This document shows positions 7,900-51,735 of a DNA stretch of 64,000 bases, piece by piece. A program made the position numbers and the translations under genes. The notes under the pieces were generated by a model, which was not told the origin of the DNA, made no database searches, and saw only the letters and a list, made by a program, of their open reading frames with translations. Every line of letters starts with the position of its first letter. The stretch's first letter is position 1. The DNA is from Escherichia coli (GTDB lineage Bacteria; Pseudomonadota; Gammaproteobacteria; Enterobacterales; Enterobacteriaceae), in the NCBI RefSeq assembly GCF_050920415.1, contig NZ_CP169309.1. The stretch is one strand, 5' to 3'.

Positions 7900-10236
7900 A
7901 TGAAGCAAATTCGTCTGCTGGCGCAGTATTATGTTGACCTGATGATGAAGTTAGGTCTGGTGCGCTTCTCAATGTTGCTGGCGCTGGCCCTCGTCGTTCT
8001 TGCCATTGTGGTACAAATGGCAGTGACCATGGTGCTGCATGGTCAGGTCGAAAGCATTGATGTTATTCGTTCTATCTTCTTTGGTTTGCTGATTACGCCG
8101 TGGGCGGTCTACTTTCTATCGGTGGTCGTCGAGCAACTGGAGGAGTCACGACAACGTCTGTCACGGCTGGTGCAAAAACTGGAGGAGATGCGCGAGCGCG
8201 ATTTGAGCCTCAACGTTCAGTTAAAAGATAATATTGCCCAGCTAAATCAGGAAATTGCCGTTCGTGAAAAAGCGGAAGCAGAACTGCAGGAAACCTTCGG
8301 CCAACTGAAAATTGAAATTAAAGAGCGCGAAGAGACACAAATTCAGCTCGAGCAGCAATCCTCATTCTTACGTTCCTTCCTTGATGCTTCACCCGACCTG
8401 GTTTTTTATCGTAACGAAGATAAAGAGTTTTCCGGCTGTAACCGCGCGATGGAGCTGCTGACCGGAAAAAGCGAAAAACAACTGGTTCATTTAAAACCTG
8501 CTGATGTTTACTCACCGGAAGCCGCTGCGAAAGTCATTGAAACCGATGAAAAAGTGTTCCGTTATAATGTGTCACTGACCTATGAGCAGTGGCTGGATTA
8601 TCCCGACGGACGCAAAGCCTGCTTTGAAATCCGTAAAGTGCCGTACTACGACCGCGTGGGTAAACGTCACGGTTTAATGGGTTTTGGTCGCGACATTACC
8701 GAGCGTAAGCGGTATCAGGATGCACTTGAACGCGCCAGCCGCGACAAAACAACGTTTATCTCCACCATCAGTCACGAATTGCGTACACCGCTGAACGGTA
8801 TCGTCGGCCTGAGCCGCATTCTGCTGGATACTGAACTTACCGCTGAGCAGGAAAAATATCTCAAAACCATCCATGTTTCTGCCGTCACGCTGGGGAATAT
8901 CTTCAACGATATTATCGACATGGATAAGATGGAACGGCGCAAGGTCCAGCTTGATAATCAGCCGGTTGATTTCACCAGCTTCCTTGCCGACCTGGAAAAT
9001 CTCTCCGCATTGCAGGCGCAACAGAAAGGATTGCGCTTTAATCTGGAGCCGACGCTGCCATTACCGCATCAGGTCATTACCGACGGGACGCGTTTACGGC
9101 AGATCCTGTGGAATCTCATCAGTAACGCCGTCAAATTCACCCAGCAAGGCCAGGTTACCGTGCGCGTGCGCTACGATGAAGGCGATATGCTGCATTTTGA
9201 AGTGGAAGACTCTGGTATCGGCATTCCGCAGGATGAGCTGGATAAAATCTTCGCCATGTATTACCAGGTGAAAGACAGTCATGGCGGTAAACCTGCCACT
9301 GGCACCGGTATTGGTCTGGCCGTTTCTCGTCGTCTGGCGAAAAATATGGGCGGCGATATTACGGTTACCAGCGAACAGGGCAAAGGTTCCACCTTTACGT
9401 TGACGATCCACGCACCATCGGTGGCTGAAGAGGTCGATGATGCGTTTGACGAAGACGATATGCCTTTACCGGCGCTGAATGTGCTGCTAGTAGAGGACAT
9501 TGAACTGAACGTGATTGTCGCGCGTTCTGTGCTGGAAAAATTAGGAAACAGCGTTGATGTCGCCATGACCGGCAAGGCGGCGCTGGAGATGTTTAAACCG
9601 GGTGAATACGACCTGGTGTTGCTGGATATTCAGTTGCCAGATATGACCGGGCTGGATATCTCTCGTGAACTGACGAAGCGATATCCGCGCGAGGATTTAC
9701 CACCGCTGGTAGCCTTAACCGCTAACGTGCTGAAAGACAAACAAGAGTACCTCAATGCTGGAATGGATGATGTGCTGAGTAAGCCGCTTTCTGTTCCGGC
9801 GCTAACCGCGATGATCAAGAAATTCTGGGATACCCAGGATGATGAGGAGAGTACGGTGACGACAGAAGAGAACAGTAAATCAGAAGCATTGCTCGATATT
9901 CCCATGCTGGAACAGTATCTCGAACTTGTAGGACCGAAGTTGATCACCGATGGGTTAGCGGTGTTTGAGAAGATGATGCCGGGATATGTCAGCGTGCTGG
10001 AGTCGAATCTGACGGCGCAGGATAAAAAAGGCATTGTTGAGGAAGGACATAAAATTAAAGGTGCGGCGGGGTCAGTGGGGTTACGCCATCTGCAACAGCT
10101 GGGTCAGCAAATTCAGTCTCCTGACCTTCCAGCCTGGGAAGATAACGTCGGTGAATGGATTGAAGAGATGAAAGAAGAGTGGCGTCACGACGTAGAAGTA
10201 CTGAAAGCGTGGGTGGCAAAAGCTACTAAAAAATGA
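7900..10236 (+). CDS. arcB: Aerobic respiration control sensor histidine kinase ArcB (hybrid kinase with receiver and HPt domains)
   Basis: 778-aa ORF; two N-terminal TM segments, leucine zipper/PAS region, H-box SHELRTPLN, receiver domain and C-terminal HPt; recognised as ArcB. Confidence 0.97.
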   Translation: MKQIRLLAQYYVDLMMKLGLVRFSMLLALALVVLAIVVQMAVTMVLHGQVESIDVIRSIFFGLLITPWAVYFLSVVVEQLEESRQRLSRLVQKLEEMRERDLSLNVQLKDNIAQLNQEIAVREKAEAELQETFGQLKIEIKEREETQIQLEQQSSFLRSFLDASPDLVFYRNEDKEFSGCNRAMELLTGKSEKQLVHLKPADVYSPEAAAKVIETDEKVFRYNVSLTYEQWLDYPDGRKACFEIRKVPYYDRVGKRHGLMGFGRDITERKRYQDALERASRDKTTFISTISHELRTPLNGIVGLSRILLDTELTAEQEKYLKTIHVSAVTLGNIFNDIIDMDKMERRKVQLDNQPVDFTSFLADLENLSALQAQQKGLRFNLEPTLPLPHQVITDGTRLRQILWNLISNAVKFTQQGQVTVRVRYDEGDMLHFEVEDSGIGIPQDELDKIFAMYYQVKDSHGGKPATGTGIGLAVSRRLAKNMGGDITVTSEQGKGSTFTLTIHAPSVAEEVDDAFDEDDMPLPALNVLLVEDIELNVIVARSVLEKLGNSVDVAMTGKAALEMFKPGEYDLVLLDIQLPDMTGLDISRELTKRYPREDLPPLVALTANVLKDKQEYLNAGMDDVLSKPLSVPALTAMIKKFWDTQDDEESTVTTEENSKSEALLDIPMLEQYLELVGPKLITDGLAVFEKMMPGYVSVLESNLTAQDKKGIVEEGHKIKGAAGSVGLRHLQQLGQQIQSPDLPAWEDNVGEWIEEMKEEWRHDVEVLKAWVAKATKK

Positions 10237-10348
10237 CCCCGGCTAGACCGGGGTGCGCGAATACTGCGCCAACACCAGGGAAATCTTGGCTGCGCCGTAA
10301 ATTATTATGATGAGTTACAAGGGCACAGCACTGTTTTTCAGGCCGCAC
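10228..10348 (-). ncRNA. arcZ: ArcZ (SraH/RyhA) Hfq-dependent sRNA, convergent with arcB and overlapping its last codons
   Basis: Minus strand reads GUGCGGCCUGAAAAACAGUGCUGUGCCC...GCGCACCCCGGUCUAGCCGGGGUCAUUUUUU, matching my recollection of ArcZ (~121 nt); ends in a GC hairpin plus U-run that overlaps the arcB stop. Confidence 0.75.
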
Positions 10349-10465
10349 GCAGTTAAGATAGCAAAACTTAAATGATTTGTTACATGAATCAGTTAAATGT
10401 GTGATGCGTAGCATTTTTATTAAAAAAATTAATGTGTTTCAGTCAATTGCGAAAGGATGATCACA

Positions 10466-31817: not shown

Positions 31818-31893
31818 AATCTCGCGCTAACAACCTGGAATCGAGCCGTCATACTACGGCGCAACGCCCTATAAAGTAAACGATGACCCTTCG

Positions 31894-31921
31894 GGAACTT
31901 CAGGGTAAAATGACTATCAAA
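31894..31921 (+). promoter_or_regulatory. Candidate sigma-E promoter of greA
   Basis: GGAACTT-N16-TCAAA matches the sigma-E consensus, ~140 bp upstream of greA. Confidence 0.5.
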
Positions 31922-31936
31922 ATGTGAATTGTAGCT

Positions 31937-31971
31937 GACCTGGGACTTGTACCCGGGTCGGTATTTTTTTG
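31937..31971 (+). ncRNA. graL: greA leader hairpin and terminator (GraL sRNA region)
   Basis: gacctggg...acccgggtc stem followed by ggtattttttt within the greA 5' leader; consistent with the described GraL leader transcripts. Confidence 0.5.
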
Positions 31972-38621: not shown

Positions 38622-38708
38622 GCCGAGGTGGTGGAATTGGTAGACACGCTACCTTGAGGTGGTAGTGCCCAATAGGGCTTACGGGTTCAAGTCCCGTCCT
38701 CGGTACCA
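38622..38708 (+). tRNA. leuU: tRNA-Leu (anticodon GAG)
   Basis: 87-nt GCCGAGGUGGUGGAAUUGGUAGACACGCUACCUUGAGGUGG...GGUACCA with long variable arm and encoded CCA; 14 nt after the secG stop. Confidence 0.95.
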
Positions 38709-44616: not shown

Positions 44617-44693
<77 letters not shown>

Positions 44694-44815
44694 CTTTCCC
44701 TTAGAGTCCTTTTTCAAATATACTGTGAAGACTTCGGCCTTCGTAGTGGGATTTGAAAAAATCCTTCTGGAAAGTGCTCCAGACCGCAGTTGCGGTTATA
44801 GGGTTCAGTTATATA

Positions 44816-44840
44816 AAGCCCCGATTTATCGGGGTTTTTT
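44816..44840 (+). terminator. Rho-independent (partial) terminator between metY and rimP
   Basis: gccccgat-tt-atcggggt followed by TTTTTT. Confidence 0.8.
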
Positions 44841-44899
44841 GTTATCTGACTACAGAATAACTGGGCTTTAGGCCCTTTTTTTATGTCTTGGGGGTGGGC

Positions 44900-49564: not shown

Positions 49565-49581
49565 GGTTTTTAGGGTTCTAT

Positions 49582-49653
49582 GCGGGATAAGGCGTTTACG
49601 CCGCATCCGGCATGGATTGCCTGATGCGACGCTGGCGCGTCTTATCAGGCTAC
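49582..49653. repeat. Pair of REP (BIME-like) palindromic units in the infB-rbfA spacer
   Basis: gcgggataaggcgtttacgccgcatccggca and gcctgatgcgacgctggcgcgtcttatcaggc match the REP consensus. Confidence 0.7.
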
Positions 49654-51124: not shown

Positions 51125-51490
<366 letters not shown>

Positions 51491-51504: not shown

Positions 51505-51534
51505 AGAAAAGGGGCCTGAGTGGCCCCTTTTTTC
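51505..51534 (+). terminator. Rho-independent terminator of rpsO
   Basis: aaaaggggcc-tgagt-ggcccctttttt. Confidence 0.85.
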
Positions 51535-51735
51535 AAACTGACGGCAGCAATTCACTGGAAACTAATGTATTGTTGCTATGAATGATCTTCCGTTGCAGAG
51601 GTTCGCGCGGCTAATGAGAGGCTTTACCCACATTGGGCTGGGTTAGGGTTGTCATTAGTCGCGAGGATGCGCAGAAGATCGGGTATTAACACCAGTGCCG
51701 TAAGGTGCTGTCTAAGAAAGAGAAAGGATATTACA

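Follow-up and report, generated by a model that had tools for sequence, protein, structure and literature searches.

The arcZ small RNA gene of Escherichia coli and the 9 nucleotides it has in common with arcB

Two genes run towards each other at the 3' end of arcB in the window, the 64,000-nucleotide stretch of Escherichia coli DNA (contig NZ_CP169309.1) that was analysed and to which all positions refer. Which RNA is encoded opposite arcB, and where do the two transcripts end? A first-pass annotation made from the letters of the DNA had answered that the minus strand carries a 121-nt ArcZ at 10228 to 10348 and that one bidirectional terminator region serves both genes. The first part of this answer holds. 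The second, in our opinion, does not.

Identity of the RNA gene

The RNA gene at 10228 to 10348 (minus strand) is, with near certainty, arcZ of Escherichia coli at its usual site between arcB and elbB. The Rfam ArcZ family RF00081 matched 10241 to 10348 (minus strand) over the full length of the model (1 to 106) with 120.8 bits and E = 4e-27, far beyond the gathering score of 66 bits; the match stops at 10241 because the model ends ahead of the 3' half of the terminator. In the alignment, every one of the 121 nt agrees with arcZ of K-12 (b4450, K-12 positions 3350577 to 3350697). The alignment and the Rfam scan, two of the checks that had been suggested, thus bore out the 121-nt minus-strand ArcZ, and neither a missing Rfam match nor a divergent 3' region, named beforehand as grounds for abandoning it, was encountered. 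Of 5426 complete E. coli genomes, 5416 contain the gene, 5395 of them with at least 99% identity, and this frequency together with the Rfam E-value places the match far above chance. The full-length primary transcript begins with G 10348 and ends with the last U at 10228; two independent published data sets for K-12 place the ArcZ 3' end at 3350696 and 3350697, which are 10229 and 10228 in window coordinates.

The neighbors on the two sides are ArcB and ElbB according to NCBIfam equivalog models and the RefSeq annotation, with elbB upstream of arcZ. The convergent sensor kinase gene arcB occupies 7900 to 10236 (plus strand; also in the list of open reading frames [ORFs]), and its product scores 1480 bits against the NCBIfam ArcB equivalog NF008302 (cut-off, 838). 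ArcZ has been known since 2001, and older names of its gene are sraH and ryhA. The arcZ of the window is thus an already known and ordinary gene that matches the laboratory-strain copy. The RefSeq record with a sequence identical to the window has no arcZ feature, which is an annotation gap and no sign of gene absence; the Rfam call supplies the correct feature that the automated annotation omitted. The processing, targets, ArcAB control and arcB overlap of ArcZ have all been reviewed in detail (PMC11331407).

Could the region instead encode a small protein? A 62-codon ORF at 10226 to 10414 (minus strand) does appear in the mechanical ORF list. However, the mapped start of the arcZ transcript lies downstream of the ATG of this ORF, and indels of 1 nt and 9 nt in the ArcZ 5' part of close relatives would break the frame. 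The variable 5' half, the invariant 3' half and the compensatory changes in the stems form the pattern of a structured RNA. We give the small protein practically no credence and dropped the ORF as coding.

Promoter and parts of the RNA

The promoter block of arcZ lies at 10349 to 10404 (minus strand), with its hexamers placed relative to the K-12 transcription start: an extended -10 element, TGC-TATCTT, at 10355 to 10363 and a -35-like GTAACA at 10378 to 10383. The conserved sequence continues to about -56 upstream of arcZ, and the block is nearly invariant across the 21 Enterobacteriaceae species of our alignment. A sigma-70 consensus scan called no promoter for arcZ, because the match at 8 of 12 positions, accompanied by the extended -10 TG, falls under the threshold of 9.

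Is arcZ repressed by ArcA/ArcB, closing a feedback loop, as had been claimed? The literature states so, and ArcA-P binds the arcZ promoter according to a 2024 review (PMC11331407), but an ArcA ChIP-seq study reported that the region upstream of arcZ has no ArcA site (PMC3798270). The 15-mer ArcA consensus GTTAATTAAATGTTA has 0 matches with 3 or fewer mismatches in the whole window, and its best match in the arcZ promoter has 5 mismatches, which is not meaningful. Hence, the claim stands on the experiments cited in the literature and not on the sequence, which holds no consensus ArcA box.

The precursor starts with a variable part. Its 5' stem-loop at 10289 to 10329 (minus strand), taken from the Rfam consensus structure and the fold, has an 8-bp stem, GCUGUGCC/GGCGCAGC, in which a single pair is G.U, and its sequence differs between the aligned species. 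Downstream of it, CCAAGA|UUUCCC can be read in the window, and a cut at GA|UUU, between 10284 and 10283, leaves 56 nt as counted from the sequence; this is the processed active 3' form at 10228 to 10283 (minus strand). The RNase E site and the 56-nt product were described by Chao 2017 (PMC5222698) and in the review (PMC11331407). Directly 3' of the cleavage site we read the conserved core and seed, CCCUGGUGUUGGCGCA, at 10265 to 10280 (minus strand), which is named as the conserved determinant of ArcZ (PMC11331407). An ArcZ is expected to carry this core after GA|UUU in a fragment of 55 to 60 nt, and the window has it in one of 56 nt. The core is invariant across the 21 species, with the restriction that the pattern used to fetch those loci itself contained it. 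The seed region is therefore intact, as the first-pass annotation had it, with core and RNase E site both present, and the processing to a short 3' fragment that acts on rpoS and other targets is backed by the literature, with the 56-nt species as the active form (PMC11331407; PMC5222698).

Two hairpins and a tail make up the remainder. The small internal hairpin GCGC-AGUAUUC-GCGC at 10255 to 10269 (minus strand) is part of the Rfam structure and of the RNAalifold consensus; all 4 of its pairs are invariant, so covariation is silent either way. The terminator scan placed a Rho-independent arcZ terminator on the minus strand, a hairpin at 10236 to 10254 (ACCCCGG-UCUAG-CCGGGGU; -14.0 kcal/mol) followed by CAUUUUUU. 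Four of the 9 pairs of its stem show compensatory double changes across species in the RNAalifold consensus. The CA spacer and the six-U tail occupy 10228 to 10235 (minus strand), and a T-run of 5 to 9 nt stands at the 3' end in all ArcZ loci. Hfq binds the 3' region of ArcZ, and U-tails of this kind bind Hfq (PMC11331407).

Transcript ends where arcB and arcZ meet

ArcZ is described as lying downstream of and convergent with arcB, with its 3' end usually overlapping by about 10 nt (PMC11331407). In the window arcB (7900 to 10236, plus strand) and arcZ (10348 to 10228, minus strand) have 9 nt in common, 10228 to 10236, where AAA AAA TGA (Lys-Lys-stop) is complementary to the UCA-UUUUUU of ArcZ. 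The K-12 overlap is also 9 nt, as the arcB stop codon ends at 3350689 and arcZ at 3350697. The convergent arrangement and the overlapped stop codon are thus as had been annotated, but the further statement that the 3' hairpin and the U-run overlap the last arcB codons is right only for the U-run. The U's at 10228 to 10233 lie opposite the two final Lys codons, whereas the hairpin contributes a single base: the TGA stop at 10234 to 10236 (plus strand) is opposite the CA spacer (10234 to 10235) and hairpin base 10236, and the rest of the hairpin, 10237 to 10254, lies outside arcB. An overlap of 9 to 11 nt between the same genes in the same orientation occurs in 88 of the 110 Enterobacterales loci with a callable arcB frame (the window counted among them), and ArcB ends in ...KK in the species that have it. 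As a consequence of the overlap, deletions or tags at the arcB 3' end harm the ArcZ terminator and U-tail, and vice versa, a problem that experimenters already circumvent (PMC3937726).

Does the hairpin at 10236 to 10254 then act as a single bidirectional intrinsic terminator that ends both the arcZ and the arcB transcripts? It is near-palindromic and folds similarly both ways (plus strand, -13.4 kcal/mol; minus strand, -14.0 kcal/mol), and it begins at the final base of the arcB stop codon. Convergent bacterial genes commonly share a terminator. However, the scan gives a terminator on the minus strand alone. In the arcB direction the hairpin leads into GCGCGAAU and no U-tract, with a single T among 8 nt, and these 8 nt contain 0 to 2 T in 112 of 112 loci; being complementary to a conserved part of ArcZ, the stretch cannot turn into a U-tract. 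For the 112 loci, 120 were fetched with an 18-mer and about 8 chance matches in unrelated bacteria were removed, among them loci from Lawsonibacter, Caulobacteraceae, Solibacter, Comamonas and Austwickia, in which the downstream GCGCACCCC is missing. A bidirectional terminator would have an A-tract, a hairpin and a U-tract on each strand, and only the ArcZ strand has the U-tract.

Mapped transcript ends point the same way. The K-12 Term-seq and TRS tables contain the ArcZ 3' end, but between arcB and elbB they give none for the arcB strand, so that 3' ends on both strands were not found in these data; the arcB mRNA is of low abundance, which makes this absence of evidence. Moreover, arcB mRNA has been reported to act on ArcZ as an antisense, which is explained more easily by arcB transcripts that extend further into arcZ. 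A literature search for a bidirectional terminator together with arcZ returned the phrase in one unrelated use (a plasmid part), and the SMRT-Cappable-seq supplements mention neither arcB nor arcZ. Given the minus-strand-only call, the paucity of T at every locus and the mapping of the ArcZ end alone, we consider a bidirectional terminator very improbable and do not maintain the claim of a shared one.

The arcB transcripts could end farther on, at a weak intrinsic terminator inside arcZ that consists of the antisense of the 5' stem-loop (10289 to 10329, plus strand) followed by ACUGUUUUUC (10330 to 10339). In that case the arcB mRNA would have a 3' untranslated region about 100 nt long and complementary to ArcZ throughout. 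The plus-strand fold does give an interrupted hairpin of -15.1 kcal/mol and then a five-U run; the A-rich stretch at ArcZ nt 10 to 15 from which those U's derive recurs in close relatives, and a similar arcB-strand site scored in Citrobacter (locus L021). Yet the site was not called under the rule of the terminator scan, the z-score of its hairpin is only -2.0, the U-run stands 3 to 4 nt away from the stem, and where the ArcZ stem has its G.U pair, the arcB strand has a C.A mismatch. The two K-12 data sets have no arcB-strand 3' end at this position. A scan for arcB-strand terminators across species gave scattered sites without a consistent position, which is a weak negative only, as it varied hairpin lengths in 5-nt steps and missed the 41-nt candidate of the window itself. 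An internal terminator of this kind is conceivable, but we regard it as unlikely.

A more far-reaching reading, which as a whole we find rather doubtful, is that arcB has no terminator of its own here. Its transcription would pass through all of arcZ and the arcZ promoter, possibly into elbB-mtgA, and ArcZ read-through would extend antisense into arcB until Rho acts about 760 nt further. The feedback would then operate mainly by collision of the convergent transcription and by long antisense pairing, not by seed pairing, and it would be the Hfq-binding U-tail of ArcZ, not a requirement of the protein, that keeps the C-terminal Lys-Lys-stop of ArcB fixed throughout Enterobacterales. Mandin and Gottesman 2010 had put forward parts of this reading, according to the summary in the review (PMC11331407).

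Our preferred reading is that the hairpin at 10236 to 10254 probably terminates arcZ only. Since the hairpin lacks a U-tract on their strand, arcB transcripts that reach it would probably continue antisense to ArcZ. We hypothesize that these extended transcripts give the complementarity needed for the mutual repression of arcB mRNA and ArcZ, which has been reported along with the antisense action of arcB mRNA on ArcZ (PMC11331407).

Proposed mechanism and comparison with known systems

The regulation of ArcZ, its dependence on Hfq, its targets and the arcB feedback have been described (review, PMC11331407; Bak 2014, PMC3937726), and its expression, Hfq binding, processing and control of rpoS were published for the identical K-12 sequence, from which they may be carried over to the window. 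Behind its conserved promoter, the gene in the window consists of a 5' stem-loop that varies, the RNase E motif, an invariant single-stranded core, the small hairpin and a terminator that ends in six U's. Published experiments on this sequence in K-12 give the following course, which would apply to the window as well. Hfq binds the 3' part, and RNase E cuts the precursor once to give the stable 56-nt 3' fragment. The core of the fragment base-pairs with target mRNAs; ArcZ activates rpoS and represses tpx, sdaC, mutS and flhDC, among others. At low oxygen, phosphorylated ArcA is reported to repress arcZ transcription, and ArcZ in turn to lower the arcB mRNA, which closes a negative feedback loop.

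Among RNAs with a comparable life history, ArcZ resembles RprA and MicL, in which a precursor likewise undergoes a single Hfq-guided RNase E cut at R-N|W-U-U to yield a stable 3' species with the seed (PMC5222698; PMC11331407). Unlike ArcZ, however, RprA and MicL are not convergent with the gene of their own regulator; they lie at other loci and are unrelated in sequence. The closest counterpart is ArcZ of K-12 itself (SraH/RyhA, RF00081, b4450), which has the same 121 of 121 nt, neighbors, 9-nt overlap, RNase E site, core and terminator and a nearly unchanged promoter. The RNA is unchanged, and three substitutions are found in the aligned flanks: the promoter has one, at about -64, and arcB has two, of which the one nearest the stop codon is synonymous (GCT versus GCC, Ala).

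With bidirectional intrinsic terminators the locus has in common a GC-rich, near-palindromic hairpin that sits at the meeting point of convergent genes and folds on both strands. It differs from them in the mapped 3' end on one strand (K-12) and in having no A-tract 5' of the ArcZ-strand hairpin, because of which the arcB strand has no U-tract. In the GadY/gadX system a small RNA lies opposite the 3' end of a regulator mRNA and affects that mRNA by perfect complementarity. ArcZ is similarly placed opposite the 3' end of the mRNA of its regulator, but in contrast to GadY it acts mainly in trans via a short seed and overlaps the arcB coding sequence by only 9 nt; any longer complementarity to arcB would depend on how far the arcB transcript extends.

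Identity and anatomy of arcZ

Judged by its sequence, the element on the minus strand at 10228-10348 (GUGCGGCCUGAAAAACAGUGCUGUGCCCUUGUAACUCAUCAUAAUAAUUUACGGCGCAGCCAAGAUUUCCCUGGUGUUGGCGCAGUAUUCGCGCACCCCGGUCUAGCCGGGGUCAUUUUUU) is the already known small RNA ArcZ, the same RNA as the experimentally characterized K-12 molecule. All the defining features of ArcZ that a sequence can reveal are present: the covariance-model score, the synteny and overlap with arcB, the core with its cleavage site, and the terminator. An Rfam 15 scan of the entire window at gathering thresholds gave a full-length ArcZ match (RF00081) at 10241-10348(-), scoring 120.8 bits (gathering score 66; E = 4e-27). The model stops inside the terminator loop, so the match reaches 10241 instead of 10228. 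The window is identical to K-12 over 121/121 nt of arcZ and over the promoter block that extends upstream to -56; the aligned flanks contain three substitutions, of which one lies higher up in the promoter, near -64, and two lie in arcB. In the K-12 MG1655 record, arcZ (b4450, 3350577-3350697) overlaps arcB (3350689-3353025, opposite strand) by 9 nt. Since the two arcZ copies agree over their whole length, the first-pass annotation placed the ends of the gene exactly, and it recognized ArcZ correctly. We correct it on two points, the extent to which the hairpin overlaps arcB and bidirectional termination.

Transcription starts at G 10348 by identity with the K-12 annotation, and the RNA (all features on the minus strand) begins with a 5' stem-loop at 10329-10289, whose 8-bp stem includes one G.U pair. 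An RNase E motif, GA|UUU, places the cut between 10284 and 10283; the resulting 3' piece (10283-10228) is exactly 56 nt long, as reported for the active form (Chao 2017 PMC5222698; review PMC11331407). The conserved core CCCUGGUGUUGGCGCA, read from the sequence at 10280-10265, is described as a determinant of unique cleavage and carries the seed (review PMC11331407). The first-pass statements on an intact 3' seed and, by the literature, on processing to a short 3' fragment hold. A small GCGC/GCGC hairpin (10269-10255; Rfam structure and cross-species consensus) is followed by the terminator hairpin ACCCCGG-UCUAG-CCGGGGU (10254-10236; terminator scan, -14.0 kcal/mol) and directly by a CA spacer and six U's (10235-10228).

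The organism is Escherichia coli, and several complete genomes match a 371-nt query from around the site at 100%. This query is present in 5416 of the 5426 complete E. coli genomes, and the 121-nt arcZ alone has at least 99% identity in 5395 of those; 10 of the 5426 gave no match in the arcZ-region searches. In 21 genomes arcZ has only 95-99% identity, and one record has a copy of the region on a replicon labelled as a plasmid. The RefSeq annotation of L001 (NZ_AP027764.1 605814-609184), a scan locus identical to the window over this region, lacks an arcZ feature in the arcB-elbB interval, where the K-12 record has one, leaving a gap in the annotation of a conserved small RNA. The other matches at Rfam gathering level are expected in this part of the E. 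coli chromosome: SraG (51506-51677, minus) and, on the plus strand, the greA (31848-31969), ribosomal S15 (51163-51277) and rimP (44782-44882) leaders, the nucleoid-associated RNA naRNA4 (49581-49651) and two tRNAs (38622-38705, 44617-44690).

Promoter and conservation across species

An extended -10 element, TGC-TATCTT (10363-10355, minus), can be read from the sequence, with a -35-like GTAACA (10383-10378, minus) 17 nt from it. The consensus promoter scan did not call this promoter because 8 of 12 positions match and the threshold is 9. Repression of arcZ by ArcA/ArcB, also part of the first-pass annotation, is established by the literature, in which ArcA-P binds the promoter (review PMC11331407), and not by the present sequence analysis: no stretch of the window matches the ArcA 15-mer consensus at ≤3 mismatches, and the best match in the arcZ promoter has 5 mismatches. 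An ArcA ChIP-seq study states explicitly that it found no ArcA site upstream of arcZ (PMC3798270).

In 21 Enterobacteriaceae species the ArcZ 5' half is variable, with indels, and the 3' half and promoter block are almost invariant. The conservation of this block (10349-10404, ~56 bp upstream of the start) goes far beyond the needs of the -10 and -35 elements and suggests protein-binding sites beyond the core promoter. Scanning a species-representative genome collection with the 18-mer CCCTGGTGTTGGCGCAGT yielded at least 120 loci; about eight of the 120 listed are chance matches in unrelated phyla, and the rest are from Enterobacterales. Among the matches listed are Escherichia, Citrobacter, Enterobacter, Pantoea, Erwinia, Yersinia, Photorhabdus, Xenorhabdus, Proteus, Providencia, Edwardsiella, Hafnia, Rahnella and others. 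The 3' half in all Enterobacterales loci listed runs on through AUUCGCGCACCCC, a hairpin, UCA or UUA, and a run of 5-9 T; conservation of the 18-mer follows from the construction of the search, and that downstream of it does not. Compensatory double changes at 4 of 9 terminator-stem pairs (GG/CC, AA/UU, AG/CU, GA/UC; among the matches listed) support the hairpin as a selected structure.

Overlap with arcB and the ends of its transcripts

The arcB open reading frame (7900-10236, plus; ArcB equivalog NF008302, 1480 bits, cut-off 838) ends with AAA AAA TGA at 10228-10236, and arcZ is convergent with it and overlaps its stop codon, as annotated. Two Lys codons are therefore complementary to the ArcZ U-tail, and the stop codon to the CA spacer and the last hairpin base. 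Of the hairpin and U-run said to overlap the last arcB codons, the U-run does so and the hairpin contributes a single base. Next on the plus-strand side lies the ElbB gene (NF008747, 352 bits), which starts at 10457 in a mechanical ORF call (220 aa) versus 10466 at the RefSeq-equivalent position; the latter form, of 217 aa, aligns with the ElbB model over its full length.

The arcB frame was callable in 110 of the matches listed, window included; its overlap with the 3' end of ArcZ is 9-11 nt in 88 and 0-2 nt in 12, 9 loci have none, and ArcB ends in K-K-stop in the overlapping loci. In about 20 species among these matches (Pantoea, Mixta, Hafnia, Pluralibacter and others; loci including L009, L010, L015, L044, L047, L048, L053, L056, L067, L079, L088 and L098), arcB stops elsewhere, with a 0-2 nt overlap or a gap, and the UCA/UUA triplet between hairpin and U-tail is retained. 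The triplet may thus be under constraint from the RNA, and not just from serving arcB as its stop codon.

Do the two genes share one bidirectional terminator, as first proposed? The hairpin at 10236-10254 is near-palindromic and forms on either strand (-13.4 kcal/mol for that of arcB, -14.0 for that of arcZ). However, an intrinsic terminator also requires a U-tract, and the arcB strand has GCGCGAAU after the hairpin. The eight bases 3' of it on that strand include 0-2 T in all 112 ArcZ loci among the matches listed, and this stretch, being complementary to conserved ArcZ sequence, cannot evolve into a U-tract. In the terminator scan the site is called only on the minus strand. Published K-12 3'-end maps are in agreement, with an ArcZ end and no arcB-strand end: Term-seq has a strong ArcZ end at 3350696(+) in at least two condition lists (Adams 2021 PMC7815308), and the TRS tables have a primary terminus at 3350697(+), with minus-strand neighbours at 3349714 (elbB unit) and 3368963 and none for arcB (PMC10687069), an absence of evidence, as arcB mRNA is scarce. 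Sequence and maps together make a shared terminator very improbable, and of the interpretive claims in the first-pass annotation it is the only one that does not stand.

Where, then, do arcB transcripts end? Some of them might stop at the ArcZ 5' stem-loop in its antisense form, which has ACUGUUUUUC (10330-10339, plus) after it. This alternative is weak: the plus-strand stem is interrupted, because the ArcZ G.U pair becomes a C.A mismatch, its z-score is only -2.0, and the cross-species scan found no consistent equivalent among the matches listed. The arcB mRNA and ArcZ are reported to repress each other through antisense pairing (review PMC11331407; Bak 2014 PMC3937726), which makes most sense if arcB transcripts extend past the hairpin. 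We hypothesize that they do so, which would allow pairing with ArcZ. The least ordinary reading is that arcB has no terminator of its own and that convergent transcription through arcZ couples both genes. A Rho-dependent termination region antisense to arcB at K-12 3351461(+) (window about 9464(-)), about 764 nt past the 3' end of ArcZ, would fit an arcB without a terminator; the region has a Rho score of 15.2, bicyclomycin raises the downstream reads from 20 to 418, and the exact position is soft because the 800-nt upstream counting window includes ArcZ (Adams 2021 PMC7815308). This site could be due to transcription past the arcZ terminator or to an internal antisense promoter. An arcB gene without a terminator, if true, would be a modest refinement, and one partly proposed before.
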